From: a virus
DNA: 64,000 nt
Direction: 5' to 3' (one strand)
IMG/VR virus record: IMGVR_UViG_3300027586_000003
Coordinates: 41,002-105,001 of that record
The notes beneath the pieces are model-generated. The model did no database searches. It saw only the letters and a list, made by a program, of their open reading frames with translations, and was not told the origin of the DNA. This document shows, in pieces, positions 20,232 through 50,700 of the stretch (position 1 is the first letter of the stretch; every line of letters begins with the position of its first letter). The position numbers and the translations under genes are program-made.

Positions 20232-20663
20232 CTACACTGTTCGCGGCCCGAACTTGGCATCCAACTCTTTCAGATACGCCTCCATCTCCGGTGACTGCTC
20301 CCACACCGTCCCGTCATCCGGCACAAGGCGGCGGTCAACATCCTTCGGAAACTGCGTGAAGCTCGCTACGTCATTCGGCGTTGGCAACAATTCGACAGCC
20401 CGCGCCGGGTCATCCATCGGCACCACGGACAGATTGTAGTTTCCGCACAGCCTGATAAGGCTGTCGCAGAACAACTCCGGCTCGTCGGTGATGTCCACGC
20501 TCCGCTCGCTCTCCGGGTCAAAAAAGTCCTGCTTGACGACCATTTCCGTCGCGGCGGTGTCCGTCCAGCGCATCCTGCCGTCCGGCAGAAACTCAATCTC
20601 ACCAGCCCAAATTCTCGCCTGTGTTTCACGCGAAAACTCCTGAATTTGAATGTGACGGCTCAT
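20232..20663 (-). CDS. Acidic hypothetical protein coupled to the kinase gene (possible immunity/partner)
   Basis: ATGA overlap with the kinase stop; D/E-rich 143 aa. Confidence 0.6.
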   Translation of the reverse strand: MSRHIQIQEFSRETQARIWAGEIEFLPDGRMRWTDTAATEMVVKQDFFDPESERSVDITDEPELFCDSLIRLCGNYNLSVVPMDDPARAVELLPTPNDVASFTQFPKDVDRRLVPDDGTVWEQSPEMEAYLKELDAKFGPRTV

Positions 20664-22384
20664 GGTGCTCTCAGTCTAGCAAGGAAATTATCCGCATCTT
20701 TCGTCCCATGCGCCGACTTGCGCATCGCCTTGAAAAAAGTCGGGTTTGCGCCGCCGCTGGCATGAAGCATGGGTTGCAGATTAGCCGCACGCTGTTTCAT
20801 TGTCGAGACTGAACCGGGCAACAATCCATGCGTTGCTCCAAAGGTGTCAAGCCACGTTGCGAATTCTGGAGAATTTACTTTTCTTGAAAGCTCTGAAACT
20901 CTCCGGTCTGCCGCTGCATCCATCTGAACCTCGTGCGCAAAAACCATCGCCGTAGAGACGTTGCCCCCAACAAGCCCGGTGTGCTCGTAGGTGTGGTGGC
21001 TCTCTGGCAACGTCAATCCGTGGTCAATTGGATGAAGCCTTCCAACCTTGTCAACCATCATGTTGCCACTATGTCGGTCAGTGTTTCCAGTGATGTAGTC
21101 AAGCACTGCCAACTCCGCCAACCTAGACTTGTCATTATCCCAAAGTTTCGGCCAAAACTTCTTTGCGCGAACCTCATCCCCGTAAGCGTTTTTGGTAGGC
21201 ACTGAATCAGGATCGAAGTCAATCAACGATTGCAGTGAGCCTTTCTTGCCGTCCACTATCACCATCGCTGTTATGGAATGCTCAATCCCAAGTTGTTTTG
21301 CAATATCGTAGGAGGCAACCTCACGCTTCGCGCCGCTAACTGCACGATCATCAATGTTCGATCTGGCACCCTTACCTTCACCCGATTCCGGCTTGAAGAC
21401 GCCTTTCGTAACGGTTCCGTCGGCTGCGGTAGCCTTCAGAATGAAAGACTGGCTGTAGTTTTGCCTGCCGCCCAACTTGTCCAATTTTCTTGTGGTTGAA
21501 GTTGCAATATCGCCCGCCACTTTCTGCTGTTCGGCGTGAATGTTGGATTGGAAATTTCCGGGTGTGACTGGCGCAATTGGCTGCGCTGCCGGGGCGGCTT
21601 GGGCTACGGGGGCCACGGGGCGCATCGAATTTCGCTCCATGTGCGCTATCACGTCCTGCTGCCACCTTTTAATCCGTGGGGCAGCACCGTTCAGATTCAC
21701 GCCGCGCACAGCAGCCACGTCGTTGCGATAAATCGCCTGATTGATTGCGGCGATTCCAGCCCTTCCGATTGGTGCGTGTGCCTGTGGCCTAATGACTGGC
21801 GCACGCGGTGGCAGATGTTGCGCCGCTGCTTGCCGTGCAATAATCGCCGCTTGGCCTCGCAACGGGCCAGCCGCCGGGGGTTGCACTGCTGCCTGCCGTG
21901 CGATGTCCGCCGCGATTTTAGCGTCACGGACGGCCTGTGCGTTGGCTTCGGCGGCACGGGCGTTGTGTTCGGCCACAATGACCGCCCGGCGGGCGTCCTC
22001 TGGCGACGGAACTGGCAATGGGGCCGGTCGCTGAATCGCCGGGCGTGCGGCCTGCGGCGGTGGAGCCGTGTCCGGTCTGCCGGGGAGCGCACGGCGAGGG
22101 GGCCACTCGGCTGACATCGGATTCGGTTTCTCAACATCCGCCACCCGTTGCAGCCTGCCGCCGACCTTGGCGTAGTGCTTCCTGCCAAACTTGGGTATCT
22201 TCCCAATATCGCCTTGATTACCAGCCCCAGCCCCGACGTGGCACTTCAGGTCGCCTGCGATGAATCCGTCGCCGCACGCCTTACCACCACGCACACGGGC
22301 GTTTGCCAGCGTGCGTGCCGTGCGAACAATCTCGGCGTATGCTTGGTTGAGCATTTTTTGGAAATTAACTAAGCCGCTTGCCAT
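20660..22384 (-). CDS. Tagged protein with C-terminal PI3/PI4-kinase / HipA-like kinase domain
   Basis: GVFKP, KREVASY, GSLQ, DYITGNTDRHSGN and IDHGL motifs; N-terminal LAN...KACGDGFIAGDLKCHVG tag; Ala/Pro linker. Confidence 0.85.
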   Translation of the reverse strand: MASGLVNFQKMLNQAYAEIVRTARTLANARVRGGKACGDGFIAGDLKCHVGAGAGNQGDIGKIPKFGRKHYAKVGGRLQRVADVEKPNPMSAEWPPRRALPGRPDTAPPPQAARPAIQRPAPLPVPSPEDARRAVIVAEHNARAAEANAQAVRDAKIAADIARQAAVQPPAAGPLRGQAAIIARQAAAQHLPPRAPVIRPQAHAPIGRAGIAAINQAIYRNDVAAVRGVNLNGAAPRIKRWQQDVIAHMERNSMRPVAPVAQAAPAAQPIAPVTPGNFQSNIHAEQQKVAGDIATSTTRKLDKLGGRQNYSQSFILKATAADGTVTKGVFKPESGEGKGARSNIDDRAVSGAKREVASYDIAKQLGIEHSITAMVIVDGKKGSLQSLIDFDPDSVPTKNAYGDEVRAKKFWPKLWDNDKSRLAELAVLDYITGNTDRHSGNMMVDKVGRLHPIDHGLTLPESHHTYEHTGLVGGNVSTAMVFAHEVQMDAAADRRVSELSRKVNSPEFATWLDTFGATHGLLPGSVSTMKQRAANLQPMLHASGGANPTFFKAMRKSAHGTKDADNFLARLRAP

Positions 22385-23358
22385 GTCAATAGCGATGCTT
22401 TTTAGTTTGCGGCAACTATGTCACCATGCGACTGACTCTTGCAGCCGCCCATGTTTGCCCCGCGTCTCCGCCCCACAATGCCCACGCAATGCGGCCTGCG
22501 GAGGGAAAGCCATCTTCATTAGGCGTAAAACCTTGCCCCTTTTTATCAACTTCGTGTCGCGCAAAAAACGAGTGCATCCGCTTAACGGTGTCGTCGGAAA
22601 GATTTGATTCGTTGCTAATGTCCCTAGCGCGAGCAACCCCGACCTCGGTTCCTCCTCGGTTGTGTTCTCTGCGCCAAGCCAGACCGCGAGCGGCTTCCTC
22701 AATCATGTCTTTGCTCGGCTTGTTCTGAGATTTCTCAAACTCGGCAGAGTTGTTGAATGACTCGCCGCACGGTTGCCCGCTGTTCGCCAAGGCAACCGGC
22801 CCGTCGCACGCCGCCATCAATTCATCGAAGCTGAACTTGCCACGGTTCCGTAGCTGAACGTCCCGCTCAGTGACGCCGCCGACCAAGTTCTTAACCTGCT
22901 TGGCGAAGTGCAACATCTCGTCGAATCCGCGACTCGCCGCGTCCTTGATTGAGTCGTAGCTGTTGTGGAACATGGCTTTTGGAATCTCGTCCACGACCTC
23001 TAGCAGCGTCGCCCTGAACGTCTTCTCCATCTCTGGAATGGTGAACGTCTTTTGATGCTCGGCCAGCACTGCCTCTGGATTCTGTTCGTAGGCGAACCTC
23101 GCCCCGGCCCGCGTGTTCTTGCTCGCCACGACCATGAAAACCCGCTGCGTGCCGCTGGCGTCCTTTGCCTTGAACGTGACCGCCGCCATTCTGGCTGTCT
23201 CAGGCACGTCCACTCCGAGTTTGTCGCCCTGACCGGCGTGGCACTCTTTGTCCGCTGCTATGAAGCTGTCACCGCACGCCTTACCACCACGCACACGGGC
23301 GTTTGCCAGCGTGCGTGCCGTGCGAACAATCTGGGCGTATGCTTGGTTGAGCATTTTT
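22272..23358 (-). repeat. ~87-bp direct repeat (22272-22358 / 23272-23358) encoding MLNQAYAxIVRTARTLANARVRGGKACG
   Basis: Near-identical nucleotide sequence 1000 bp apart. Confidence 0.9.
22416..23354 (-). CDS. Tagged head-associated protein
   Basis: N-terminus duplicated from the kinase gene; C-terminal ARGLAWRREHNRGGTEVGVARARD...RMHSFFARHE...GRIAWALWGGDAG domain that I recognise from phage head-region proteins. Confidence 0.7.
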   Translation of the reverse strand: MLNQAYAQIVRTARTLANARVRGGKACGDSFIAADKECHAGQGDKLGVDVPETARMAAVTFKAKDASGTQRVFMVVASKNTRAGARFAYEQNPEAVLAEHQKTFTIPEMEKTFRATLLEVVDEIPKAMFHNSYDSIKDAASRGFDEMLHFAKQVKNLVGGVTERDVQLRNRGKFSFDELMAACDGPVALANSGQPCGESFNNSAEFEKSQNKPSKDMIEEAARGLAWRREHNRGGTEVGVARARDISNESNLSDDTVKRMHSFFARHEVDKKGQGFTPNEDGFPSAGRIAWALWGGDAGQTWAAARVSRMVT

Positions 23359-23369
23359 CGGGAAAGTAA

Positions 23370-26300
23370 TTAGGATTGCTGCGATGTAAACGCGAGTTCC
23401 GGGTGTTCGTCCGGCTCGTCAGCGCGATTCTTCATCGCCTCCGATTCTTCGAGAATCTTGGCACGAACCTGCTCCGGCGTGACCTCAAAGTTTTTTTCCA
23501 GCACCCAATCACGGACGGACGCCTTGACCGCCCCGATTTGAGTCCCCTTGAGCTTGGGAGCCGCAGCCATAATGTCCTTGCCGGTGAACACGGCTGAGAG
23601 CCGCTTTTCCATCTCCTCTTTCTTGCCGAACTGCTCAACCAAGCGGTCGGCACGGCCCATCTTTTTCTCGAAATCCTCCGCCTTGAACAGCGCACCACGG
23701 GACGCTTCATCGCTGCGCATGACCTCTCGCAGCAGCGGCCAGTTCTTCTCCTGCCGGAACCGCAGCGCGAGCCTGTCGCTCACCGCGTCGAAGTTGTGGC
23801 CGACCATGTGGTGTTCCACCGCCAGCGCAATCGCCTCTTTCTGCTCGTTGCTGAACTTCAACCGTGCGGCTGCCTTCTCCAAGAGCGGGATGCCAGCGGC
23901 CTCGTGCGCGATGTAGGTCGGCTGGCCGTCCTTCTCACCACGGGTGGTGGCCTTGCCGATGTCGTGAAGCAGAATGGCGACGTTCGTTGTCGCATCATTG
24001 GTGTTGCTGGCCTTGACCGCCTCCAAGACGTGCTCATACACGCCGCCCTCCGGGTGGTGCTTCGGGTTGTGCGGCAGTCCACGCATCGCCGCCACCTCTG
24101 GCAGCGTGTGCTCCAGCAGCCCGGCCTCGCTCATCACCGACACGAACTTCGCCAGCGACTTGCCGTTGTCCGCCGCCTTGAACACCTCGTCACGGATGCG
24201 CTCGCCGGAAATCGTGGCGACTGACGGAGCCAGTTTCTTCATGGCGTCCATCGTCTTCGCTTCAATGTCGAAGCCCAGCCGACCGGCGAACCTCGCCGCC
24301 CGAATCATCCGCAACGGGTCTTCAGTGAACCTTGCCTCCGGGTCGCCGACGGCGCGAATCACCTTGGCTTCTATGTCGGCTTTGCCGTTCTGCGGGTCAA
24401 CCAAGTTGCCTGCGGCGTCCATCGCCATCGCATTGATGGTAAAGTCACGACGCTTCGAGTCTTCATCGAAGCTGCCCGCCGCCGTGACAGAATCCGGCCT
24501 GCGCTGGTCGGTGTAAGCCCCGTCCGTGCGGAACTGTGCGACCTCGAATGTGTGGCCCTCATGTGGAATCGCCACAATGCCAAAGTCTGCGCTGTTGCCG
24601 ATTTCGTGCGAGCGGAAAGCGGACTGCAACTTCGCTGCGGGCAGCGGCGTCGCAATGTCGAAGTCCTTCGGCGTCTTGCCCATCACCATGTCTCTGACCG
24701 CGCCGCCGACAATGAGCGGATTCGTGCCGGGGAACTGCCGTTCAATCTCACCGAGGATGGACACGGCAGCCTTGGCCTGCGGGTTCGACTCAGCCATCTC
24801 TTTCAATCCGCCGCCTTCCTTGGGTGCGAACTTGCCGTCGGCGGCGCGAGGGTGAAGCGACTCCTCAAACTCGCCGGAGTTACTGATTTTGTTGCTCGAC
24901 TTGTTGAACCGTTTAGAGAGCGGGATGACGTTGCCTTGGTCGTCGCGGGTGATGGGGTCGGCGGATTTGATTTGGGAGGGGCTGAAGACGACAGTGACAT
25001 TGCTCGTGGCTGTCTGCCCCCCTTCGACTACGTTGCTTACCTTGAGAGAATCATGCCCGCGAGTTTGGGCAATGCCTGCGATGTCTCCTATGTCGCTGCG
25101 AGTATTGCCGTAGGTTACATCATACCACTGGGAGCCTTTTGCATCGACTGACAGCGGGTTATTAGTTTTAAGAAACACCTCCATTTGTGGCAGGTCGTTC
25201 ACCGGAGAGTCTGCAAAGTATATCCCGTCACCTACGTCGTTTGAAAATTCAGTGAACTTCTTATCTGTCCCGTGATAAGCCTTGGTGCCATACCCCGCCG
25301 CCTTCGCCGCCTCATCCACCATCTTCTGAGCCGTGAACGTGTCGCCCGACGCCACCGCGCCTGCGTAGGCCGCGTCCTGCTCAGGTGTGACCCCCACATG
25401 GCAAGTGTCGCCGGACTCAATAAAGCTCTCGCCGCAGGGCTGGCCGCTGTTGCTGATTTTGTTGCTCGCCCTGTTGAACCGTTTAGAAAGTGGGATGACG
25501 TTGCCAGCGGAGTCGAACACAACAGGTGAAGACGACTTTATCCTAGCGGAGTCGAAAACAGCTATCTCCCTGCTGCGAGTTTTCACTTCACCAAGCCCAC
25601 CAGCCGTCATATATCCACTGACAGAATTGAATCCTTTTCTTATTAAGTCATCAATGTCTCTGCTAGATATGTTACTTGAAGACCTTATCCCGTCTTTAAC
25701 TGTTGCCGTTCGCCCCAAGTTGACAAAGTATTTTACAGGCTTCATCATACCAACACCAATGTCTGTGAACTTCAAAAGCCTGTTTGAATCTTCAACCGTC
25801 GGTGTTAGATAGACTGCTTTCCTATACGTTGTTTTTCCAACGCCTTCAGATGGCTTGTAGTCGTCCGGCAACTTGCCAGCGTCAACCGCCTTGACCCAAG
25901 CATCGGCCCCGTGCTTGGCCGCAAAGTCACCCCAAACCTCATTCTCAATCGAAAGCGGTGTCCGTGGATACTCGGTTTGAAAAACCTCAATCGGCGACCC
26001 ATTTCTGGTTCGATGGTAGGCAACCGTGTAGCCAGCCGCCTTCGCCGCATCGTCCACCATCTTCTGAGCGGTCACAGTGTCACCCGCCGCCACCGCACCC
26101 GTATAGGCTGCGTCCTGCTCCGGCGTAACTCCGACGTGGCAAGTGTCTCCGGCTTCGATGAATGAATCACCGCACGGCTGGCCGCTGTTGCTGATGTTCC
26201 TGTCGCCCTTACTCCATGTGCCACGGTTGAATGCCGATTTAATCTGTTCAGGACGCAATGCGATGTAACTTGTGCCTTTGGACTCGCCCTTGTTATCGTA

Positions 26301-29300
26301 AATAACACCGTCGTAACCAATGCTGTTGAGCCACTTCACGTTCACGAGCCATCGCCCCTTGCTGCCATAGGTCGAGTTCTCGTTCAGTTCATCAATCCAT
26401 TCTTTGTGTTTGGATTTAGAGATTACCCCTTCGTTGAACATCTTGTTGTGAACATTGTGCCAATCAAAATCATCCAGCCTTAGTGGGTTTTTTATGCTGA
26501 TATAAACAGGCTTTATGTTCGCGCCTTCGGCGTAGGCTGGGTTTTCGTATCCTTGAAAGAATCGGCTTCTAAAGTTGTAATTTATGATGTCGTTTGCCTG
26601 CTGTGCCGTTCCGAAATGCGAGCCTAAACCTTCCTTTACCCTTCCAAACTCCGTGAAACCAGCATTGGTTCCGTGATAGACCACAAGCGGCTTCCCGTCC
26701 TTATCCACAACCTTCGAGTCTCCGAACCATTCCTTGAACTCAGGCGATTCTGTGCTGGCGGGCCTGAGTGCTGGCGCGGTCTGGCCTTCACCTTCACCAA
26801 CATGGCACGTTTTGTCTGCGGAGATTGACGACTCACCGCACGGCTTGCCGGTGTTTCTGTTCAGCATCGGTTCGTCACGATTCGCCAGCTTCTTCGGCGC
26901 AATGCCCATCTCCTTTGTGAACTTGTTTGCCGCCTTCAACACATCTTTGATGTCCATGTCAATTCGGCGCGTCTTGATTTTTGTGTCGCCGAACTTTCCG
27001 TCCTTCGCATCCAGCCCAATCTTCGCCGCCCAGCGGTGGTGCCCATCAATCACATAGCCATCACGCGACACGAAGATGGAGTTCTCATCAAGGCCGACCG
27101 CCTTCTGACCCTCCGGCGACATCATAAACGCCACGTTGCTGCCCTTCAACTCGCTCTGCGACGCTTTCAATGAAGAAGCAGGTTGGTCAATGTCTTCGGT
27201 CTTGACGCCCTTCTTTAAGAGGCTCTGAACGAACGCTTCGCCGACATTAACCTCGCCCGCTTTATCCTTCGGGAAATTTTTCTCATCGTCCACGGTTGAA
27301 CCTTTTACCGGAAACCCAGCCAGTTGCGGCATCTCGGAGCGTGGAATCGGCTTACCGTCGTCGCCCTTCAATGACTCGCCGCAGAACAGGTTGGTTCCCG
27401 GCACGGACACCTTGCACAGATTCAGGTTTACCTTCTCGCCGCTCTTCTTAGCTTCGTTAGCAAACTTGTGGATTTCCTCAATTGCGGTGTTGACCTCTTT
27501 CACGCTTTTCAGAACCACGTCACCACCGCCTTTAAGCGCAGTGACCGCCGCCTTGCCAGCCTCCTCTTCCGCTGTGGCCTTCACCGGCTTCTCCTCAACC
27601 GCCTTGACCGCAGCTTCCGGTGCCTTCGGCGATTCAGCCGCCTTGGCCGCTTCCGGCTGTGCGCCAAGATACTCGCCTATCTTGTCGGAAAGTTTGCGCG
27701 ACGCGCCGATGGCTCGCTGTTGCTGCTGCAAGGCGTGAAGGACTTTCAGTTCCTTCATCTTGTCTGTGTCAGGAAGAGCCTTCGCTGTCTCGACGTGCGC
27801 CTTCAACTCGCCAAGCAATTTGCCAACCTCTTCGATGCTTTTCGGCTTCACCATCTTGATTTGGCCGGACGCTGCCATTGTGGACATGGGCTTGGCACCC
27901 GCAGAATCCGTCTTGCCCGCCTTATCCGCCTTCGGAGTCGCCGCCACCGCCGCCGTGACCGGCGCATCCTTTGTCGGGGCTGTCTCGCCAATGTGGCACT
28001 CCATTTCCTCGCCGATGAATGACTTGCCGCACGCCTTGTTTTCCAGTGTGCCTTCGCTGTTCTCCTTGACCAACTTCGCAATCTGTTCGTGCATCTCCTC
28101 TGCGGACACACCACGCGGGAATATAAAGCTCACGCGCCCGCCCGGAGCGGCATTCTGCAAGCGAATCTCCGCCATCTTGCCAAGGTCGAAAATAGCGAGT
28201 TCCTTCAACTGCTTGGCCTGCTCCATTGCGCCGCCGACCGCCTTGTGAATCTGAACCACGTCCAAGAAAATCTTGCCGCTCACCTTGTCAAACCAGCCGC
28301 CCATGTGCGCCAGAGGGTCTTTCTTCAACGTCTCTGCCGCCCGGTCGAAGAAACCCTTCACCGCCTTGACGGAAAGCTGCTTGGCGTTCAACACCACCTC
28401 TAAATGCTTGTAGGCACTGACTGCGAAGCCGGACTTTGGAGACTTGTTCTGAGCCGGTTCGTAGGTGAAGCCGCCTGACTTCCTGAGCTTCGTCACCAAC
28501 TGCTTTCCCTCTGCGTGTGAGAAGTCACCTTCACGGCACGTCTTGTCATCGGAAATGAAGGACGCACCGCATGGCTTGTTCGACAGCGCATCGTCTTCAA
28601 TCCACGGTGCGTCGTTGTCCAGTTCTTCGCTGACCGGCTGCGTCGTGTCCTCCATCTTCAACCACGCCTTGAACTCGTCAACCGTCATCGGCGTCACGTC
28701 GCCGACCCGCTCTGCACCGCGACCGTCGCTGAATCCCTTATGATATGTGCTGAGTGCGGTGAACAGGTTCGGGAACGCCAGCATGACCTTGTGTTCGTCA
28801 AAGTCACCCGTGTTGGCATCCACTTGGTCAATCACAAACACCTTGCTGGAATCGGGTGCGTCGCCGAGATACACGTCAACCTCATCTCCGTCGGCTCCCT
28901 CAGTGTCAATGACGTAGCCATACGAAGCTGGCATCACCGTCGCCCAAGTTTCCCCTTCACTGTTCGTCCCACTACGGACGCCGCCCTTGGGATTCTCGAC
29001 GCTGATTGACAGGCCGTTCCACGTCGCCTCGCCCTTCAGGTAGTTGCCGGACTCTTTCTGCGCATCCGTCGGAGCCGCCGCCACCGTCACCGGCTGGCCT
29101 AGCACGGTCGCTGCCACTATGTCGGTGCGGTTGTTGAACTTGCTGTTGTTGCTATTGAACCGCTGGGAAAGCGGAATCACACTGCCAGTATCATCACGAA
29201 CAACCGCATCACTTCGCTTGAATTTTGAAGTGTCAAAGATTGCAATATGCCTTCCGGTCGCTCCCGGCCCGTCGTGTATCGCCGCCGAGAATCCAGCCTT

Positions 29301-31041: not shown

Positions 31042-31971
31042 TTAGGAGGTGATGTTCAGTCGGACGGCGGCAGTCGAGTTTGTCACCTTGACATCCTCAC
31101 TCCAGTCAAACTTGGCGACTTCCACACGCCCGTCGTCGCGGACGTAGCTGCCCGGCACCATGTAGTTGTTGGTGAGGCGGAACGTCTTCATAAACGACGG
31201 GTCGCGGCGCGTGGGGTTAGCGCGGCGGGCGAAGATGAGGACGGTGGAATCCAGCACGAAGTTGATGTCTTCGGCGACGCCTTCGGGGGCGTTGTCATAC
31301 ACCATGTAGGACACGCGCACGTCAGGGGAGCCGAGGAACAGCGAGGACGCGGATTCCGGGGTGATGTTCGGGATGGCATTGCCGCCAGCCGTGGTGAAGC
31401 GAGCGCGGACGTTCGCCTGATTCTTGAAGATGCGAAACGCAGACGCACCGAACAGGACGCCGACACCCATGAGGGAGCCATACTTCGCGGCCTTGATGAC
31501 GGCGAGAACATAGGTGTCAATGTCGTTGACGGGGTCGGCGGACGAGTTCCACGTCTTGTCGGTTCCCGCTCCGATGCTGGAGAGCGCGGTATCCACGACA
31601 AGCTTTTCGTGGGCGAGGCCCGCGATTTCAGCGACGAGGGTGGCACCCTCTTCGAGCACGGATTCCAGCCCTTCAGCTTCAAGCTCTTCGAGGTTGTCCA
31701 CAGGGAAGTCGAGGGCGTGCGGGGCGCAATTATAGGTTGCGTCGGCGACGGCGAACGAGAGTTCCGTGGCGCGTCCACCGATGCCACGAAGGGTGGCGGG
31801 GATGCGGAAGCGGTTCTTCTCGGTGTATTGCTTGTAGCGGCCAACGCTGGCAGCGACAGGCACGGTGGGGGCGATGAAGTCGGCGACAGGCTGAACGCCT
31901 TCCTGAGCCGCGCCTTGCGCGTAATCACGAAGCATCTTGCTCTCACTGACGGATTGGAGACGTGTAGGCAT
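31042..31971 (-). CDS. Major capsid protein (HK97 fold, gpE-like)
   Basis: 309 aa; L.DYAQG...VADFIAPTVPV....GRYKQY pattern; order protease-scaffold-cement-capsid-adaptor; followed by a terminator. Confidence 0.85.
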   Translation of the reverse strand: MPTRLQSVSESKMLRDYAQGAAQEGVQPVADFIAPTVPVAASVGRYKQYTEKNRFRIPATLRGIGGRATELSFAVADATYNCAPHALDFPVDNLEELEAEGLESVLEEGATLVAEIAGLAHEKLVVDTALSSIGAGTDKTWNSSADPVNDIDTYVLAVIKAAKYGSLMGVGVLFGASAFRIFKNQANVRARFTTAGGNAIPNITPESASSLFLGSPDVRVSYMVYDNAPEGVAEDINFVLDSTVLIFARRANPTRRDPSFMKTFRLTNNYMVPGSYVRDDGRVEVAKFDWSEDVKVTNSTAAVRLNITS

Positions 31972-33062: not shown

Positions 33063-33130
33063 ATATCGCGTTCGTTATTGCGGATGTAATTCAAGCCGCA
33101 TGGTTGTCAAAACAATTTTAAGAAATTTTT

Positions 33131-41016: not shown

Positions 41017-41023
41017 GAGTTTT

Positions 41024-41302: not shown

Positions 41303-41317
41303 AGTGGTGTTGGTGTT

Positions 41318-41683: not shown

Positions 41684-41689
41684 ACCAGC

Positions 41690-41718: not shown

Positions 41719-41733
41719 GGGTATTTCTTGCAG

Positions 41734-43005: not shown

Positions 43006-43271
43006 GTTCGCTCCACGAACGCCAGCGGGCCGCTGAATACCCAAGCCCATTGACCAGCGGTGACAACATCCGCTCCTGTGGCGTCTTTGAACGTCAGCCC
43101 TGCCTCCGGGTTCACCTTCAGCTTGGTGAATGCGAACTCGCTCTTGCTGCCTTCCATTGTGACCACCACCGTATCAGGTGAGTCAGTGGCAGACGGCGAG
43201 GGCAACAAGCCCACGAGCTTTACGATTTCTTCGGGGGTGAGAACGGTTTGGTTTTCGAGATGAATCATCAT
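43002..43271 (-). CDS. Hypothetical protein
   Basis: 89 aa, coupled to the helicase start. Confidence 0.6.
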   Translation of the reverse strand: MMIHLENQTVLTPEEIVKLVGLLPSPSATDSPDTVVVTMEGSKSEFAFTKLKVNPEAGLTFKDATGADVVTAGQWAWVFSGPLAFVERT

Positions 43272-43283
43272 AGTTTTGTTTGG

Positions 43284-43574
43284 TTAATTTCCTGAAAATC
43301 TGTGCGCCCCGTTCACAACACGCTCCTGCTGTGTAAAACCTACGGTGCGAACCTCGTTGTGCAAGCTGTCCATGAAGTCAATCTCCTGCTTGTCGGTTTT
43401 GTTCTCGTTGATGGATTGAGCCACGACCGCCATGCAGGAGACCGCGCCCGCATGAAACGCCTGTCGCACTTGCTTCTCCTGCTCATAGGCCATCCCAACC
43501 GGGTAGGCGCGTGACTTGTAATCCGACCACTCTGCTGTGAATGGATTGCTGTATTTCGATTTGCTCTTGCTCAT
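43284..43574 (-). CDS. Hypothetical protein
   Basis: Q..QVRQAFHAGA motif; ATGA overlap with RusA. Confidence 0.6.
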   Translation of the reverse strand: MSKSKSKYSNPFTAEWSDYKSRAYPVGMAYEQEKQVRQAFHAGAVSCMAVVAQSINENKTDKQEIDFMDSLHNEVRTVGFTQQERVVNGAHRFSGN

Positions 43575-44095
43575 ATTGTTGCGTTTAGTTTCCACACTGA
43601 AACCACTACTCGCGGGTTAAGTTTGTCGTCGAATCGTTGCGCTTCGATGCGCTCAATCTGAGCGTCGTCAGCGTAGGCGAATCCTTGCAGCACATCTTCA
43701 ATCACCTTGATGCGGTTGCCAAGGTCGCCCCGGCGAATCGGGCGGTGAACCAGCAGCTTGATTCCCACCGGGCCTTCAAATGGACGCTTGAAGGCGGCGG
43801 CAGCAATTATGGCGCACTTCGCCTTATATTGCCGCGCCTCGGCGGACACCAGCACCCGCACGGCTCCCTTAATCACAATCGAACGCCAGTAACGGTTGGC
43901 CGAAGGAGGATACGGCAGTGTCAGGGTGACGCTCTCATGCTCTCGCTCTAAAAGCGCAGGCCCACTGAGGATGCTCGTTGCCAGAACGAGTGTTGTGAGT
44001 GGATTAAGCTTAATAGCCGCACGCGCCAGTTCGGCATCAACGAATTTTCGGCCAACCTTAGTTGCCGCAAGCTGTTGGGTTGTCCACTTAGGCAC
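43571..44095 (-). CDS. rusA: RusA family Holliday junction resolvase
   Basis: LPYPPSANRYWR...RRGDLGNRIKVIEDVL...YADDAQI. Confidence 0.85.
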   Translation of the reverse strand: MPKWTTQQLAATKVGRKFVDAELARAAIKLNPLTTLVLATSILSGPALLEREHESVTLTLPYPPSANRYWRSIVIKGAVRVLVSAEARQYKAKCAIIAAAAFKRPFEGPVGIKLLVHRPIRRGDLGNRIKVIEDVLQGFAYADDAQIERIEAQRFDDKLNPRVVVSVWKLNATI

Positions 44096-44112
44096 GTTTA
44101 GCCTCTTTGAGT

Positions 44113-44409
44113 TCAGTAGCCAGCTTCGATAGCTCGCTTGCGAAGTTCTGCACTGCGGTCAAATTTTCGCCACGGATGGCCGCTTGCAATGCTGCCCGCA
44201 CTTCGCGGTATCTTTTCCATTTCTTTGATTCGCTCATTGTCTTTGTCTTGTTGTTTATGTTTTGCTTTTGAAGCCAACTTTCGGGCCTCTGTCATTGTCC
44301 TTCCTGTGCCTTCAACTACCACCGACTCTGACGCCATTAGACGCCACCGCACTCCGCTTGCTGTGCGGATGAACACCATGCGCGTCGTCTGTATGTATAA
44401 CTTGCCCAC
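44113..44409 (-). CDS. Small basic hypothetical protein (start uncertain)
   Basis: Ends with HPWRK motif; overlaps the HNH gene 3' end. Confidence 0.45.
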   Translation of the reverse strand: MGKLYIQTTRMVFIRTASGVRWRLMASESVVVEGTGRTMTEARKLASKAKHKQQDKDNERIKEMEKIPRSAGSIASGHPWRKFDRSAELRKRAIEAGY

Positions 44410-44917
44410 GTTGAATCAGTGCTGCATTTCTGTCAAGTGTTTTCTGACGCTGTTCAGGCGACGTGTTCCACTGGCCGCTCGGCGCAATCAGCCCAAGCGC
44501 ACGCGCCTCAACCGGATGGCTGCCGACCCAGTCGTGGTGCATCCGGCAGAGCGGCTTCCACCACCGGGCATCCGTCAGCAAAGCCCCAATCTTCCCTCTG
44601 GAATGGTGACAGTCCGTAGTCGGTTTGTCGCACCCGCCGGTATAACTGCACATCCGATTCTCTGGCAACGCCTTCCACGCTTTAACCATCCGGCTATACT
44701 CACGCAACTGGGCTGAACGGACTTTGGACACATGATTGACCGTTTTGCGAGGTTTTTTTGCAGTCACAGAGTTTATAGTGCAGCGAGTTATGCCAGCCGC
44801 TTTGAGTTCAGGATTCAACTTGGCGGGCTTTTCAGCGGCGACACAGGGATTCGTCCCGACCTTGTTCAAAGTCCACAAGGCAGGCTTTGTTGTTGGCTTA
44901 TATCCGTAGAGGCTCAC
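44312..44917 (-). CDS. HNH-like (His-Me finger) nuclease
   Basis: C....C....TDCHHSRGK...LCRMHHDWV..HP..A..LGL; likely GTG start at 44917. Confidence 0.7.
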   Translation of the reverse strand: MSLYGYKPTTKPALWTLNKVGTNPCVAAEKPAKLNPELKAAGITRCTINSVTAKKPRKTVNHVSKVRSAQLREYSRMVKAWKALPENRMCSYTGGCDKPTTDCHHSRGKIGALLTDARWWKPLCRMHHDWVGSHPVEARALGLIAPSGQWNTSPEQRQKTLDRNAALIQRGQVIHTDDAHGVHPHSKRSAVASNGVRVGGS

Positions 44918-45096
44918 TTTTTCCACTCCTCTCCCGGCGTGTCGTCGTCTCCAAGCGTGCTGTGCCGTCCAAGGGCAGTCGTCGCCTGCTCGTAGATAGC
45001 CCTCTCCCCTTCCGACCACCTGTGACCGTGCTGCGACAGGGCTGTAGCCAGCGAGTCTAACGCACCAAGAATGAGTTGCTTGTCGTCGGCGTTCAT
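44914..45096 (-). CDS. Hypothetical protein (60 aa)
   Basis: Coupled on both sides. Confidence 0.55.
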   Translation of the reverse strand: MNADDKQLILGALDSLATALSQHGHRWSEGERAIYEQATTALGRHSTLGDDDTPGEEWKK

Positions 45097-45566
45097 TGTG
45101 GATTTGCAATAGAGTCCATGATGGATTTAACAGCGACCGTGAATGGTGCGACGAACGGCTTCGGCGGTGACAGCTTCGCCACCCGATTGCGCTCGGCAAC
45201 CTCAACCGCCTTGAAGTGACCGAACAGCACGATGGCTGAGAAGACGTGCTTGCAGCTTTGCCACGCATCCGGCTCCTGAACGTCCCGCTTGTTACAGGTG
45301 AAGCTCTCACAAGTGCAGCGACCACGCCCGCCGTTGCTCACCACGTCCACAAGATAGCTGACCGGCTCGGCAGCGGCCCCGCAGTGCGGACACGGCTTCT
45401 CCGACTTGCTGGTGAACTTCACCATGCACGACGGGCAGCGATACCGGGTGTCTGAGAAGGCGTGGAAGCGGCCTTCTTCCCCGTCAATCGGCTGGAGGTT
45501 GACCGCAAAGCCCACTGCGCTTGTTACCCGATATAGCGGGCCTTCACCGATGACCTTGATTTGCAT
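45093..45566 (-). CDS. SWIM zinc-finger protein
   Basis: CPSC..CPHC and CTCESF...CKH. Confidence 0.7.
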   Translation of the reverse strand: MQIKVIGEGPLYRVTSAVGFAVNLQPIDGEEGRFHAFSDTRYRCPSCMVKFTSKSEKPCPHCGAAAEPVSYLVDVVSNGGRGRCTCESFTCNKRDVQEPDAWQSCKHVFSAIVLFGHFKAVEVAERNRVAKLSPPKPFVAPFTVAVKSIMDSIANPQ

Positions 45567-45629
45567 TGTCGTTGTCTTGTTAAGGGAGGGCGACGGCAGG
45601 GGTTGCCTGCCGCCGCTCGAAATTACTGT

Positions 45630-45791
45630 TTACTGGCGACCGGCGACTTCAGCGGCTCGGCGAAGGAAGCCAGCACCGTCACCGGGCGGAGGTGAAGCCC
45701 CACCACCGGCACCGCCGCGACCGGGGAAGTTGACTCCACCACCTCGGTAATTACGGGTGCCATCACGGGCGTTACGATTGATTCGTTGCAT
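45630..45791 (-). CDS. 53-aa Gly/Arg-rich peptide
   Basis: MQRINRNARDGTRNYRGGGVNFPGRGGAGGGASPPPGDGAGFLRRAAEVAGRQ; starts 2 nt after the upstream stop with GGAG SD; followed by a GC hairpin (~45589-45616). Below the track length cutoff. Confidence 0.65.
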   Translation of the reverse strand: MQRINRNARDGTRNYRGGGVNFPGRGGAGGGASPPPGDGAGFLRRAAEVAGRQ

Positions 45792-45793
45792 GA

Positions 45794-46267
45794 TTACTCA
45801 CCCCCTTCCTGCGGAAGCGGTTCGATTGGGTCGAAGTTCAAAGTCATTGCCTTGTCTTGCTTCTCGCCGATGAAGTTGACGGCCTGTTCAGGGATTGCAA
45901 CCCCAAACTTTTTCGCCACCAACCGCCCGTCGAGGTAGCGAGGGCCAAGCTCGGTCAACCCGGCGTTTTCGAGGAAGGCCATCTTCTGCGCCTCGCTCTG
46001 GAAAACGAGGCAGCACCAATAGTTCGTGTCCATCGCCAGCCCTTGCCGGTCGTTCTCTTTCTTCTCCTTGCCCTTGAAGTGACCCGCCTTCACCTTCTGC
46101 TCGGCAAAGGCGTCCGTCATGGCCTTCTGCTCGTCGTAGCTATCGCTCTCGATGTTCCCAGTGACAGGCAGTTTCGCCAGCGGGTCTTTGACGGGCGTGT
46201 ATTTCAATGTTTTGTCGCTCATAAATGGTCTTTCATTCCGGCGAACTCGCCACGCTTCAACTCGCAC
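45794..46267 (-). CDS. Conserved partner of phage PAPS-reductase-like genes
   Basis: DTNYWCCLVFQSEAQKMAFL...RYLDG motif; true start probably MSDKTL (~46222). Confidence 0.65.
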   Translation of the reverse strand: MRVEAWRVRRNERPFMSDKTLKYTPVKDPLAKLPVTGNIESDSYDEQKAMTDAFAEQKVKAGHFKGKEKKENDRQGLAMDTNYWCCLVFQSEAQKMAFLENAGLTELGPRYLDGRLVAKKFGVAIPEQAVNFIGEKQDKAMTLNFDPIEPLPQEGGE

Positions 46268-46950
46268 TCGATGAGTGGGAAGTATTCACGAAGCCGTTCG
46301 TAATCCTTCGGGAAATGTTTTTTTATGGGGGCGATGAAGCGGTAGTCCAACCCGTCCAACGACCGGCCAAAAATCCAGTAGTCAACCGGCAGCTTCAGCT
46401 TCGCCTTGAAGATTTCCACACGAACCTCTTCCTTAGTCCAGTCCCACACCGGGTAGAACTTTTTGTTTTTGTGATTTATCGCCCCGCTGCGGGTGAACAT
46501 CGTCCGGCGGAAGATTGAATCCGCCGCCCGCACGCCAAGGGCCGTGAACGTGGTCGCCGGGAGCTTCAAATGCTGGATGACACCAGCCTGAAGGTCGTGT
46601 GCGTTGAACACCGGAAGCGATGAAGCCATGCACGGTGCAACCTGCTCTGGTGTGGCATACGTGCAGTCAATCCACCACCGATAAAGCATTGGTGACGGAA
46701 CCCGTGTGATTTTCTCACCGAACTTCTCCTCGTAGTAGTCAATCGTGCGGTTCACGAACTCCAAGTGCGGATGGATGTAGTAGAAATACGGGAACACCTT
46801 CACACCCCGTCGTTGCAGCGCAATCATGGCGGCAACCGCATCCTTGCCGCCGCTGAACGCCAGCGACACCTTGCCGCCGCTCTGTGCGGCCACTTGGTCA
46901 ATGATGGCCTCGCTTGGAAGGACGCCTTTGATTTCTATTCGCTGTGGCAT
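46219..46950 (-). CDS. PAPS reductase-family (PP-loop) protein
   Basis: AFSGGKDA PP-loop, GVRAADS..R, YPVWDW. Confidence 0.85.
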   Translation of the reverse strand: MPQRIEIKGVLPSEAIIDQVAAQSGGKVSLAFSGGKDAVAAMIALQRRGVKVFPYFYYIHPHLEFVNRTIDYYEEKFGEKITRVPSPMLYRWWIDCTYATPEQVAPCMASSLPVFNAHDLQAGVIQHLKLPATTFTALGVRAADSIFRRTMFTRSGAINHKNKKFYPVWDWTKEEVRVEIFKAKLKLPVDYWIFGRSLDGLDYRFIAPIKKHFPKDYERLREYFPLIECELKRGEFAGMKDHL

Positions 46951-47150
46951 CAGGCGATGGTAATTTCCAAGTTGGCGGTCGGTGCCGGGAGGCTTCCCAG
47001 CTTGGCGATAATGCCGTTGCGTTGCTTGGTCAGCACGGCGAGACGCTTGTTCACGTAGGAACGGGGGAACTCACCGTCGCCGCACAGGTTCTCAGGCGAG
47101 AGTTGGCAGTCCACATCCGCCAACTGATTCAGCAAGGCTTGTCTTGTCAT
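46950..47150 (-). CDS. Small phage protein (LSPENL..DGE family)
   Basis: Leaderless start at 47150. Confidence 0.65.
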   Translation of the reverse strand: MTRQALLNQLADVDCQLSPENLCGDGEFPRSYVNKRLAVLTKQRNGIIAKLGSLPAPTANLEITIA

Positions 47151-47156
47151 GCGAGG

Positions 47157-47185
47157 AGCTTTGCACGACCGCCGCCCGTCGTCAA
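47157..47185 (-). promoter_or_regulatory. sigma70-like promoter, leaderless
   Basis: TTGACG-N17(TGC)-AAAGCT-N6-ATG. Confidence 0.55.
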
Positions 47186-47202
47186 GTGTTTTGTAGCACC
47201 AA

Positions 47203-47400
47203 TTACACGCCTGCCGAACGTGCGGCCCGGACAATTTCGGCGTATGTGGACGGGCCTGCCGCATTGACCGGCGGAACAACCCGTGTCAGCGTGTCCGGCA
47301 GCGGAAGGCCATCAACATCTTTGATAGTCCCGTCTGGAGACACGTCCAGAAAGCAAACGTCCGGCTCTGCGAAGTCATCATCTTCAGTTACGTCGTTCAT
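47203..47400 (-). CDS. Small acidic protein downstream of the GNAT effector
   Basis: 65 aa, starts 6 nt after the upstream stop. Confidence 0.5.
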   Translation of the reverse strand: MNDVTEDDDFAEPDVCFLDVSPDGTIKDVDGLPLPDTLTRVVPPVNAAGPSTYAEIVRAARSAGV

Positions 47401-47406
47401 AATGGA

Positions 47407-50400
47407 TTAACAACTTGGCGTGTTTTCCGGCGTCTTTTTTCGCATGACATACCGCTTCGTTTCATCAAGGTTAGCCGTAGCCATCTTTATTGTTCCGTGA
47501 AACGTCTTGCCGACGAACATTTCAGCACCGATTTTAATGCACCCGTATTTAGCGGATGCCAGCCGAATCAGGTCACGCGGGTCGCCGCTGTCAACCAGCT
47601 TCATTAACTCTGTGTAAGCCTCTTCCGAAATCTTGGTTCCGGGGAGTGGAACATTGTCCGTCTTGTGGTTGTAAATTGAGTTTTTGTTAATCAGCGCATT
47701 GCGTTTTTGCGACGCTTCATCTTTGGTGATTACGTTGTTTTTTTCATCGGTATCAATCTTGGCGATTTTAACAGCCGTGTCAGGCTTTGTGTGCCGACCG
47801 TCGCTCGCTAAGTTTGCGCCCTGCGTCTTCAGCCGCGCAAGCGTTGATCGGGCAATGGTGCGGTAGTTTTCCGCGCTGCCGTCTGATTCATCCGGCACGA
47901 ATCCATGTTTAAGCCATACGTATCCGCCGTGCGAAAGCGCAGCAAAAACTTTTATTTCTTTCACCCCAGCCCGCTCGTATGCGCCAATGCTCTGCTTGAA
48001 CAGTCGTTGTGAAATCCCCTCTCCTTTGTTGTCTCCCGCATTAAAATAGCCATGATAAACAGATAGCCCATTTGCGCCCATGCTGAAGCTGCGCGTAATA
48101 GCGGAAGGCATTCCCGGATGAATGAATGAAACTTCAAGCCCGCCACCGGAATCAGCGACGGCCTTCACTTGCCATTTCGCTGTGACGCTGCCAATTTTTT
48201 CAGGCAAATCACTCACCATTGACAGCACCGTGTCCTTTATTTTTGCCGCAACCTCTGTTTGTGGCACTCCAAACGTCGCCGCAACCACTCTGGCGTGTCT
48301 GATTAACGATGCGTCTTCAACATACGTTGCGTTGTGACCGGCTGCGCTGTTCGGCACAAAGTCAGACGGCTGAAAAATTACCGTCCCGTCACTTCTAGTT
48401 AAAGTTGCGCTCGCTTTGCCAACCCTCGCAAGAGTCTCCTCCTTTTCTAAGCGGCTGATTTCTTGAACCCGGCGTTCAGCCGAAAGTCTTGCAGCTTCAC
48501 GGGCTGGAGCAACCTCACTGGTTCTAGCCAGTAAGGCGGCACGATGCGCTTCGTTAGCGCGTTCTAAATCTGCGGCTGCGGTGCGTGTATTTGATTCAGC
48601 TTGAGCAATCGCTGGCGCGTGACTAGCAAAAGCCTGCCGCTCTGCCGCAGCGGCAGCGTTCCGCTCGGTTTCGGAACGGCTTTCAACGGCTTGCCGCTCG
48701 GAATCAATCCGGTTAATATCAGCCTGCTCTTCTGCGCTCAAGCTCCTTCCCGGTGGAATCACAACTGGATACACTGGATTCAACCGCGCCTGCATCGCCT
48801 CATCACGCACACGCTCCCTCTCAACGCGAGCTACCTCACGCGCCCTCGCTTCGGGGGTTAATGCAGCCTCACGCGCCTGCTGTTCCATGTGTGCAACGAC
48901 ATTGGTGTGCCACGTCCGGTGCTGTGAAAGCGGCTCACCACCGCCAGCCCCAGCGGCCCGAACAGCATCTAAGTTGCCCGTGGCAATTGCGGTGTTCACG
49001 CGGTCAACAAAAGCGCGAGTGTGGGGGTAGTCGTCAGACCTGCCAGCGCGGTCGCTTGGAATCTCTGGCGCGGCGGGTATCGAGTTCTGCGCAAGTTGTG
49101 CGGGTGCAGCGGGTGCAGCGGGTGCAGCAGCCTGTCCTGCTTGCGCTGCTTGTGAAAAACCATACTGACCAACGTGGTCAATGAGCCGCTGGTGATACTC
49201 ACGTAGTATCGCATATTGACCGCGACTTGCATCCGAACCCGCCATCCTCAGATAGCGGATTGAGTCTGGATTGCGGCTGGCAACAGCAGAGCGGATACGA
49301 CTCAAATATCTCTGTCCCTCAACGTGATTCGGGTTGGTGTGTGGCTCACGCGGCAGCGGGGGCGCAACCACGGGGCTTGCTGCCGCTACGGGGCTTGCTG
49401 CCGCCACGGCTGCGGCTGCGGCTGCGGCTACGGGTGCGGCTACGGGTGTTGGGGCGGCGACCGGGACAGCGGCCTGCGCGGGAGTTCCGTTCTGCTCCAT
49501 GTGCCGAATCACGGCGGCTTGCCAGTCACGGGCGTTCTGATTGATTGGAGGGCTTGGAGAAATCGCCCTAACCGCAGCCAAGTTGCCAGTTCCAGCCGCC
49601 TCCCGAACCGCCAACACATAAGCGTGCGACAGCGGAGCGTTCGCCGGGTCGGAGAACGGCTGAACCGGAAGCGCGGCAATGAGTCCAGCGCGAACAGGGT
49701 CGGCCTGTGCGCCGCTGTTAATCGCCATCACCGCAGCTAAATCGTTTGCGGCGGCAGCGTCATTGGCTCGCAGATAGTCAACAACCGACTGACGCCACGC
49801 ACGAACGTCCGCGTTCACTGAGGGTTCCAACTCCAAATCGGAAATCGCGTTGTAATTTCCAGCCCGCGCTAGTGGCAGAATTGTTGCGACCGCAGCCGTG
49901 CTGTCTGGAAATCTGCGCTGTATGTCCTGCAAACTGTATCTCTGTGGAGCCTCTGGCATCACTGACTGCGCCACGGGGGCCGCAGCGGGCGCGGAAACCG
50001 GAGCGGGTTGCCTTGCCTCCGGCTGCGCTGCCGCCTGAACCGCTGCCGCCACCCGTGCATCAGCCTCACTAGCGGCGCGTCTGGTGATTTCAATGGCCTG
50101 TTGAACGGCCTCCGCTCGTGCGGCATTCTCCCGCCCCATCGTCGCCGCCATCGCCGCGTCCAGAGTCGGTGAAGCGGAGACAGCGGGAACATCATCCACA
50201 GTCGCTCGACGCCACCACCGCCCCGCCTGAAGTGTTGCCGCCTGCCTCGCCGCTTCAGCAGCCCGGTCAGTTTCAAGCTGCGCCGCCCGCGCATCAATCT
50301 CGGCGTGCCGCCGCGCAATAGCCGAAGTGTCCTCCGCCGGTTGTGCGGGTGCCGCAACCGGCTCTGGCCGCTGAATCGCCGGACGCTGCGCTTGACCGGA

Positions 50401-50700
50401 TTCTCGTGCGTGCAGGTTCGCTTCCCGACGGTCGGCTGCCCTCCTGAGAGTTTGGTAAGCGGCGGCTGGAATCTGGCTCCTTTCCTGTGGCAATCCTTGC
50501 GTCCGCTTCATTTCACGCTGAATCTCCAATACCCTCGCCTGACGCTCTGGCGTCCGCCGTGAACCCGCCCGCTGTGCGTCACCGGCCCCGACGTGGCATT
50601 CAAGCCCCCCGGCGATGAAGCCGTCGCCGCAAGGCTGCCCCGTGTTCGCCAGTAGGCGGGCGTCATTTACGATAACTGTGTAGGCAGCAGTGGCGGTCAC
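47407..50700 (-). CDS. Tagged 1097-aa protein with C-terminal GNAT-like acetyltransferase domain
   Basis: N-terminal LANTGQPCGDGFIAGGLECHVG; VYHGYF....KGEGISQRLF...Y...GVKEIKVFA...GGYVWLKHGF (GNAT acetyl-CoA motif and C-terminal W..xGF). Confidence 0.78.
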   Translation of the reverse strand: MTATAAYTVIVNDARLLANTGQPCGDGFIAGGLECHVGAGDAQRAGSRRTPERQARVLEIQREMKRTQGLPQERSQIPAAAYQTLRRAADRREANLHARESGQAQRPAIQRPEPVAAPAQPAEDTSAIARRHAEIDARAAQLETDRAAEAARQAATLQAGRWWRRATVDDVPAVSASPTLDAAMAATMGRENAARAEAVQQAIEITRRAASEADARVAAAVQAAAQPEARQPAPVSAPAAAPVAQSVMPEAPQRYSLQDIQRRFPDSTAAVATILPLARAGNYNAISDLELEPSVNADVRAWRQSVVDYLRANDAAAANDLAAVMAINSGAQADPVRAGLIAALPVQPFSDPANAPLSHAYVLAVREAAGTGNLAAVRAISPSPPINQNARDWQAAVIRHMEQNGTPAQAAVPVAAPTPVAAPVAAAAAAAVAAASPVAAASPVVAPPLPREPHTNPNHVEGQRYLSRIRSAVASRNPDSIRYLRMAGSDASRGQYAILREYHQRLIDHVGQYGFSQAAQAGQAAAPAAPAAPAQLAQNSIPAAPEIPSDRAGRSDDYPHTRAFVDRVNTAIATGNLDAVRAAGAGGGEPLSQHRTWHTNVVAHMEQQAREAALTPEARAREVARVERERVRDEAMQARLNPVYPVVIPPGRSLSAEEQADINRIDSERQAVESRSETERNAAAAAERQAFASHAPAIAQAESNTRTAAADLERANEAHRAALLARTSEVAPAREAARLSAERRVQEISRLEKEETLARVGKASATLTRSDGTVIFQPSDFVPNSAAGHNATYVEDASLIRHARVVAATFGVPQTEVAAKIKDTVLSMVSDLPEKIGSVTAKWQVKAVADSGGGLEVSFIHPGMPSAITRSFSMGANGLSVYHGYFNAGDNKGEGISQRLFKQSIGAYERAGVKEIKVFAALSHGGYVWLKHGFVPDESDGSAENYRTIARSTLARLKTQGANLASDGRHTKPDTAVKIAKIDTDEKNNVITKDEASQKRNALINKNSIYNHKTDNVPLPGTKISEEAYTELMKLVDSGDPRDLIRLASAKYGCIKIGAEMFVGKTFHGTIKMATANLDETKRYVMRKKTPENTPSC

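Follow-up and report, generated by a model that had tools for sequence, protein, structure and literature searches.

What does a short cysteine-containing peptide do when it recurs, ahead of one unrelated segment after another, in six genes of a single phage? We addressed this question in a stretch of 64,000 bases (hereafter the window, to which all coordinates refer unless another source is named). The window comprises bases 41002-105001 of the 105,001-base IMG/VR virus record IMGVR_UViG_3300027586_000003, which derives from an uncultured phage and has an estimated completeness of 77%. The original prediction, made from the letters alone, had read the peptide, here termed the box, as a portable signal that loads fused domains into the capsid and ejects them. 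Overall, this interpretation was partly supported. There is good support for the box as a virion-cargo marker; together with a site directly upstream it would form a two-part junction cassette of a capsid-cargo system, in which the box most likely serves as a loading or retention handle, a reading that we hold at about even confidence.

We confirmed all 14 full copies of the box, plus one truncated copy, at the places given in the prediction. They lie in six minus-strand genes, named here after the length of their products: g574 (20660-22384), g312 (22416-23354), g2212 (23370-30008), g406 (33131-34351), g761 (34355-36640) and g1097 (47407-50700). The box spans about 20 residues and has the consensus [G/N/S]-[QK]-[PA]-C-G-x-[SG]-[FHS]-[IV]-x5-C-[HR]-x-G in this phage. 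The C-x10-C spacing in the title of the prediction was right, and the four-residue spacer in its written pattern was wrong, as five residues separate the Ile from the second Cys. A few copies deviate, with one Val in place of Ile, one Ser in place of Phe or His, and REG, HIG, HAG or RLS tails. A six-frame scan of the whole record revealed no copy beyond these 15. Scored against a box profile, the full copies reached 27.7-45.7 bits and the truncated copy 12.5 bits, with the next best stretch of the genome at 7.7 bits; because the copies score far above this best unrelated stretch, a chance origin is excluded. At identical residues, codons matched at a rate of 0.55, versus 0.48 expected, and the mean DNA identity between copies was 62%. 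Since codons vary at identical residues, selection acts on the peptide, and we dropped a DNA-level repeat as a candidate for the same reason. Box cysteines account for 28 of the 39 Cys residues in the six proteins. The segments that follow the boxes are mutually unrelated, except for a set of three paralogous domains within g2212 and, in g761, a C-terminal stretch that occurs more than once, so the motif is portable, as had been claimed.

The copies are arranged as follows. In g574, a leader and a box (core from first to second Cys, 22241-22276; residue 37; 37.7 bits), preceded by TLAN-ARVRGGKA, stand ahead of a PI3/PI4-kinase-like domain (PF00454, E = 1.5e-11); the two box cysteines are the only ones in this protein. 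The g312 product consists of a leader, a box (23241-23276; residue 27; 38.0 bits), cargo of no known family (phrog_2859) and the truncated second box (about 22755-22790; LAN-SGQPCGESF), which has lost its second Cys. The polyvalent protein g2212 carries InPase, ART-PolyVal, PolyA_pol, PolyA_pol_RNAbd and HD domains and six boxes, with cores at 29718-29753 (LTN-GQP-C..., residue 86), 28536-28571 (LSN-KP-C..., residue 480), 27996-28031 (LEN-KA-C..., residue 660), 26805-26840 (residue 1057, 45 residues before the ART-PolyVal domain), 26139-26174 (ISN-SGQP-C..., residue 1279) and 25401-25436 (ISN-SGQP-C..., residue 1525). Its sole non-box cysteines form a degenerate C-x10-C pair (CKVSVPGTNLFC, 27381-27416). 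The single box of g406 lies at 34013-34048 (LAN-GQP-C..., residue 102; 45.7 bits). The four boxes of g761 have cores at 36254-36289 (LFN-SQP-C..., residue 118), 35960-35995 (YSN-SQP-C..., residue 216), 35450-35485 (MVN-AGAGGQP-C..., residue 386) and 34682-34717 (IVN-AGAGGQP-C..., residue 642), and a degenerate leader and box (FYKLFN-GG-CGCAKC, 36590-36631) marks its N-terminus, where the relatives P0012 and P0004 have a full box. Finally, g1097 places a leader and a box (50596-50631; LAN-TGQP-C..., residue 24; 37.1 bits) on a 1074-residue protein of no known family.

Outside this phage, the box again keeps company with head genes and effectors. Scanning viral contigs with a pattern yielded 113 confirmed box loci, and a profile of 76 boxes matched 473 protein clusters (E <= 1e-3) among 1.84 billion representatives, many of them with two to six copies. 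The 80 loci that we kept form one clade of constant gene order, in which a terminase is followed by a portal (Phage_portal_3), a protein of about 945 residues with a box near residue 600, a boxless MuF protein, several box proteins that include kinases, and a virion structural protein. Box genes in this clade lie between the portal gene and the conserved virion structural-protein gene (VSP421). In a third lineage, in which both the protease (phrog_530) and the major head protein (phrog_264) are different, a box protein is encoded 3 kb downstream. Box genes are thereby found among head genes in three unrelated head-module types, and the predicted restriction to head-module or effector proteins holds in this phage and in three unrelated lineages. 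Pfam families in 50 box proteins from outside the window comprise InPase, DnaJ, 2H phosphoesterase, NUDIX, LRAT, protein kinases, three kinds of ADP-ribosyltransferase, NAPRTase, CCA-adding enzyme, LPD1, Acb1, GNAT and lipases. In support of the prediction, the fused domains are the typical repertoire of injected effectors, as described for polyvalent and other injected proteins (PMC5512222). Among 321 boxes, 62 lie within the first 50 residues of their protein, and many of the proteins begin with a leader of about ten residues followed by the box, a layout reminiscent of the capsid-targeting sequence of T4.

Relatives were otherwise scarce in several collections. The head region had no megablast match in cultured phages, nor did the ~945-residue protein of the other lineage have one; phage HMO-2011 has one structural gene in common with the 80-locus lineage and no box. 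Searches for related loci with g406 and with protein P0003 found none. Searching the genomes of 185,579 prokaryote species with a degenerate DNA pattern returned 13 matches, about the number expected by chance; because just two of these were real, both on tiny contigs of metagenome bins, sequenced prokaryotes lack the GKPCG form almost entirely. When boxes were masked, one small open reading frame (ORF) was the sole similarity between this phage and the 80 loci; this ORF, at 59673-60065 (minus strand), is similar to L041:1753-2223 (E = 2e-14).

This distribution bears on the possibility that the box is a linker relic, kept as a junction for recombination when modules are shuffled and devoid of a function of its own. 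Modules are indeed shuffled between relatives, and the truncated box of g312 has the look of a recombination scar: the relative P0047 has a full box at the same position, followed by another domain. However, synonymous sites are free and the Cys, Gly and Ile residues invariant, the box is retained across lineages that have no other sequence in common, and the DNA identity between copies is too low for homologous exchange. We therefore regard a functionless relic as highly improbable.

Experimental evidence for box proteins in virions came from a cultured phage. Searching with box peptides by tblastn returned weak matches only, one of which led to the cyanophage vB_AphaS-CL131. In the 110 kb scanned of its 112.8-kb genome, all eight boxes (8 out of 8) fall in ORF044, ORF045, ORF047 and ORF048, the last of which has one canonical two-Cys box (24.5 bits) and four boxes of a four-Cys form. 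Liquid chromatography-tandem mass spectrometry of CL131 virions purified on caesium chloride detected 23 out of 149 ORFs, including ORF044, ORF045, ORF047 and ORF048 (Table S5, PMC6293099), and ORF048 had the top score in the virion protein list (PMC6293099). Every box-bearing ORF of CL131 was thus detected in virions, as the prediction had asked of tagged proteins. A separate observation concerns ORF012 of this phage (MG209611.1, 8800-12981), annotated as a 'portal', which at 1393 residues extends far beyond a portal domain, is abundant in virions and has no box; it is probably a portal-effector fusion.

In the window, the head module occupies the minus strand. It begins with a 519-residue gene, a putative portal so labelled from its position only, as it has no family match, and continues with g761, g406, g194, a 141-residue gene with a weak scaffold match, the gene for the major head protein (31042-31971; phrog_1005, E = 5e-25; no box, one Cys), two small genes, g2212, g312 and g574. 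The major head protein, scaffold and protease genes all lie within 4 kb upstream of g2212. The position of g761, after the putative portal, is that of a MuF gene; it matches no Pfam family and hence not MuF/SPP1 gp7 (PF04233). By contrast, g1097 lies 11 kb from the head module within a DNA-metabolism region, where its minus-strand neighbours (41734-47279) encode a helicase (41734-43050), a RusA-like resolvase (43571-44095) and a PAPS-reductase-like protein (46219-46950). No Pfam or PHROGs family matched g1097, and a PDB sequence search with it was empty. The 'ParB-like' and 'GNAT' labels in the prediction found no backing in Pfam or PHROGs.

Several features of the cargo and of its module ends deserve mention beside the boxes. 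A complete CCA-adding enzyme (tRNA nucleotidyltransferase), HD domain included, forms the last module of g2212 (23526-24713, minus strand); as probable virion cargo, such a tRNA-repair enzyme would make sense as a countermeasure to nucleases that attack anticodons or acceptor ends. At the end of g761 (approximately 34358-34480, minus strand) lies a stretch of about 40 residues, VQVGTA-x-E-x-AAMDARVRSPQFRKMIERRRIAG, which recurs at the end of the preceding module, immediately ahead of box 4 (approximately 34790-34910); from this repeat, modules may bear a conserved C-terminal piece besides the N-terminal box. In the other main lineage (L044:9870-11944 and related loci), small box proteins (347, 175 and 167 residues) with glycine-zipper hydrophobic segments all terminate in the motif D-S-[VI]-W-A-x-G-F. 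In relatives, this motif is also found ahead of internal boxes, and the 167-residue protein has a box with an extra Cys.

Each box is preceded by a site. The motif [LIVMFY]-x-N occurs 2-8 residues upstream of the box in 15 out of 15 copies, and the Asn site noted in the prediction is thus real. Leaders end in hydrophobic-x-Asn in all six box proteins (6 out of 6), at varying lengths of about 7-33 residues in single-module genes. The protein most likely to read this site is encoded by g406, which consists of a leader (MFYKLFN), a helical hairpin, the box, a small beta domain and a Mu-like I protease domain (residues 265-406). Residues 269-404 match PF10123 (E = 6e-20; 72.4 bits versus a gathering cut-off of 25.2), and AlphaFold2 modelled the protease domain with a predicted local distance difference test score (pLDDT) above 90. 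In ordinary Mu-like I proteins, a scaffold (Z) part follows the protease; here it is not fused to g406 and is encoded separately by g194 (32478-33062, minus strand), which has no box and is homologous to the scaffold tails of those proteins (E = 2e-19). In this family, the protease domain closes with ALTNDPNLKG-x2-P-[LI]-[ST]-N|R, and g406 and its closest relatives stop exactly there. Over 32478-34351 (minus strand), the ancestral protease-scaffold gene is thus split, precisely at the conserved P-[LI]-[ST]-N|R, into g406 and g194, with the N-terminal part of g406 forming a cargo-like extension ahead of the protease.

The scaffold itself is rich in the motif. In g194, 10 out of 13 Asn residues lie in hydrophobic-x-Asn sites, versus 3.3 expected, a number reached in 0 out of 2000 shuffles; in g761, the count was 14 out of 26, versus 5.9 expected (0 out of 2000 shuffles). 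The scaffold tails of 53 Mu-like I proteins contain 334 sites, versus 116 expected, with Arg following in 215, although these proteins are kin and their sites do not amount to 53 independent tests. A scaffold dense in the motif, much as gp22 of T4 is dense in L-x-E, is what a cleavage site predicts. Hydrophobic-x-Asn is thus probably a prohead-protease cut site, read by the g406 protease. Literature searches found no paper with the specificity of the Mu-like I protease family, for which the hydrophobic-x-Asn rule is a directly testable prediction. Two other candidates for the site were dropped: self-cleavage by an intein or Asn lyase, given Asp in other lineages and many sites in the scaffold, and 2A-type ribosome skipping, which gave no match.

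The upstream site differs by lineage, being Asn here, R-x-D or L-D-K-K elsewhere and of a G-Q-x-x-L type in a third group. Its class is uniform within a protein (same-class pairs 0.70 versus 0.34 in shuffles, 0 out of 2000). Because R-x-D enrichment in the other lineage was significant for one kinase protein only, it is in the Asn lineage that the site rule has its best support. In one lineage (proteins P0003, P0032, P0035 and P0052; locus L076), the box is preceded by a stretch of the form P-G-Q-[MG]-x-L-[FDN]-L/F (for example, QMSLF); it resembles the beta-clamp-binding pentapeptide QL[SD]LF and may instead be the protease site of that lineage.

The proximity of site and box, never more than eight residues apart, together with the presence of a box in the protease gene g406 itself, could mean that the prohead protease docks on the box, which as an exosite would render the adjacent site cleavable. 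We consider this quite unlikely. No box accompanies the ten sites of the scaffold g194, and since sites also stand on their own, it is not the box that confers cleavability. The same box goes with different proteases and different sites in different lineages, and only 6 out of 119 relatives of the g406 protease go with a box, so the link to Mu-like proteases drawn in the prediction did not hold; elsewhere, the proteases are different and the site is R-x-D instead of Asn. AlphaFold2 placed the box of g406 in a 50-residue disordered linker between the helical hairpin and the small beta domain, away from the protease domain, and secreted box proteins described below have no site at all.

We next consider the chemistry of the box. 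In the 321 boxes, the first Cys (position 0), the Gly at +1 and the second Cys at +11 are invariant, the Ile at +5 is 98% conserved, Ser or Gly occupies +3, and either His or an aromatic residue occupies +4. Ahead of the box lies a G-[KQ]-P turn, with a conserved Pro directly before the first Cys. The share of boxes with His is 34% at +4, 20% at +9 and 35% at +12; heme attachment (C..CH) was dropped as a candidate, as His is not conserved. Relatives, though no protein in the window, also show the four-Cys form: Cys occurs at +4 in 52 boxes, and 52 out of 52 have a further Cys at -6 or -7 (once at -8), versus 3 out of 304 boxes without Cys at +4 (Fisher test, 2e-59). As the second pair is gained or lost as a unit and the first pair stays constant, independent cross-strand staples are favoured over a four-ligand metal site. 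Rather than the four conserved ligands of a zinc knuckle or ribbon, there are two invariant cysteines only. The cysteine pattern therefore looks more like disulfide-type staples, with the frequent His keeping zinc in play. The predicted Cys2-His zinc site is weak on these grounds, since His follows the second Cys in only 35% of boxes, the cysteines come in pairs and proteins with signal peptides carry the box.

These last proteins (P0041, P0043, P0057, P0069, P0074, P0084 and P0125) are 73-133 residues long, with a signal peptide, two or three tandem boxes, Ala/Pro/Lys-rich linkers between the boxes and no upstream site. They are known from metagenomes only and are probably from Pseudomonadota; none had a relative in the genome collection, and P0057 used as a query against prokaryote genome contigs gave no match. 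Because such proteins carry tandem boxes, the box is an autonomous unit that works in an oxidising compartment too.

Much of this would also fit a box that is a structural staple or cap and nothing else, a hairpin closed by a disulfide or a metal that makes the N-terminus of each released module resistant to proteases and oxidation in the extracellular virion and perhaps, when reduced on entry, acts as a redox switch, with loading left to leaders or to the whole polyprotein. The unit-wise gain and loss of the extra pair while the Cys at 0 and +11 are always kept, the tandem boxes of secreted proteins, the near absence of other Cys from the cargo proteins, the Pro just ahead of the first Cys and the boxless N-terminal leader MFYKLFN of g406 all argue in this direction. 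However, capsid assembly takes place in the reducing cytoplasm, the His found at the aromatic position in 34% of boxes makes a metal site possible, and a cap alone leaves the confinement to virion and effector proteins unexplained. A role as staple without targeting is accordingly rather unlikely in our view.

Charge suggests a further possibility, that the box binds a universal ligand, such as DNA, a box-bridging metal or a conserved host component, so that modules travel with the DNA or meet a host target. No phage-encoded partner is common to the lineages, 67% of boxes are net basic and the CL131 box proteins have isoelectric points above 9. Yet the boxes in the window are net acidic (-3 to +1), so that charge is not conserved, and only two potential metal-binding residues are invariant. 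Such a ligand seems to us a long shot. Among the roles of the box, we thus place that of a loading or retention handle first, ahead of a pure stability or redox cap; a protease exosite ranks third, a binder of a universal ligand fourth and a functionless recombination junction last.

Our preferred reading, the handle, can be stated as a sequence of steps. The first part of the cassette would be a lineage-specific prohead-protease cut site (hydrophobic-x-Asn here, R-x-D or others elsewhere). Right after it would come the second part, a universal Cys loop of about 20 residues, G-[KQ]-P-C-G-x-S-[aromatic/His]-I-x5-C-x-x-G, forming an autonomous mini-unit stapled via its Cys pair. Single-module genes would consist of a leader ending in the site (about ten residues in related lineages), the box and the cargo, and polyvalent proteins would join several such modules in series. 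As the head matures, the sites would be cut by the protease, the scaffold would break up and exit, and enzyme modules would be freed inside the head with the box as their new N-terminus. Common to the proteins that stay in the virion, the box would then act as a loading or retention handle before delivery into the host. This model explains N-terminal boxes in single modules, internal boxes in fused modules that are cut at maturation, a boxless scaffold that has sites and is removed, and a tag on the distant g1097.

Several points weigh against the handle. Cleavage itself, the handle function of the box and the transfer of cargo to the host are steps that we infer. The CL131 box genes adjoin the tape-measure gene, so presence in the virion does not imply location in the head, and the CL131 boxes are mostly of the four-Cys form. 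AlphaFold2, applied to g406 and to the box region of the Big945 family with a 44-sequence alignment, gave neither a confident box fold nor a protease contact (pLDDT below 60). The small signal-peptide proteins mean that the box is not, in principle, phage-specific. One tag per polyprotein would suffice for loading, and copies at the junctions would need another reason, such as fusion history, retention or stability. Moreover, once boxes are masked, no phage protein is shared with the other main box lineage, so that any specific receptor on the capsid would need to be either structural or universal. A stronger version, in which the box is a universal handle across lineages whose carriers enter the procapsid, stay after cutting and are released when the Cys staple opens in the reducing cytoplasm of the host, is in our judgement improbable.

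Head-packed phage effectors are known from T4 internal proteins, P1 Dar proteins, MuF fusions and polyvalent proteins; to our knowledge, how most such phages select their cargo is unknown. If the box flags cargo, injected anti-defence enzymes would be readable from the genomes of uncultured phages, including genes that, like g1097, lie at a distance from the head module, and domains that belong to no known family. Boxes would then also give the boundaries of released fragments, and capsids might be loaded with foreign proteins by means of this candidate handle. Encapsulin cargo-loading peptides are likewise short portable tags that place varied enzymes inside an HK97-fold shell. Unlike the box, they are C-terminal, lack Cys and bind a defined pocket of a homologous shell protein, with neither proteolysis nor delivery. 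If the universal handle were true, the box would be a phage counterpart of such a peptide with a built-in redox switch, which could load chosen proteins into capsids.

The closest match in spacing is the repeat DUF4215/TIGR02232 (myxo_disulf_rpt) of secreted proteins, whose first half, C-G-x-G-x-[VI]-x2-G-E-x-C, is spaced alike. The box scores against it below threshold (E = 0.4-0.5; about 11 bits versus cut-offs of 27 and 20.8), and the rest of the repeat is absent. No model in Pfam, NCBIfam or PHROGs covers the box, in agreement with the prediction that it had no named family, the Atlas yielded no lead, and literature searches found no description of it. As to function, the capsid-targeting sequence of T4 (internal proteins IPI-III and Alt) is a short portable N-terminal element on head-packed, injected proteins, is cut by gp21 at a hydrophobic-x-acid/amide site directly after it and has carrier genes anywhere in the genome, as for g1097 (PMC9026906). 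However, the T4 element is a ten-residue propeptide that is removed, whereas the box lies after the putative cut and would stay on the cargo; the box also has two invariant Cys, recurs inside polyproteins, spans unrelated lineages and has no sequence similarity to the T4 element. With several unrelated effector-type domains in one chain encoded with virion genes, g2212 is a member of the polyvalent proteins of Iyer, Burroughs, Anand, de Souza and Aravind (2017, PMC5512222), near head genes as they are. C-terminal assemblin-like peptidases of polyvalent proteins, which g406 resembles, are described there as well; the full text contains neither 'cysteine' nor zinc-ribbon terms nor 'linker', and the junction cassette is absent from the published description (PMC5512222). 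In P1, an N-terminal signal of fewer than 30 residues on DarB, a giant anti-restriction protein that the phage injects, suffices to bring a reporter into the capsid (PMC9024508). That signal is similar in that it is N-terminal and serves for packaging, and it differs in occurring as a single copy, in lacking both a Cys loop and any similarity to the box, and in needing other Dar proteins. Thus, the box, without description in the libraries and literature searched, is a variant within a known strategy of packaged effectors, targeting propeptides and maturation cleavage.

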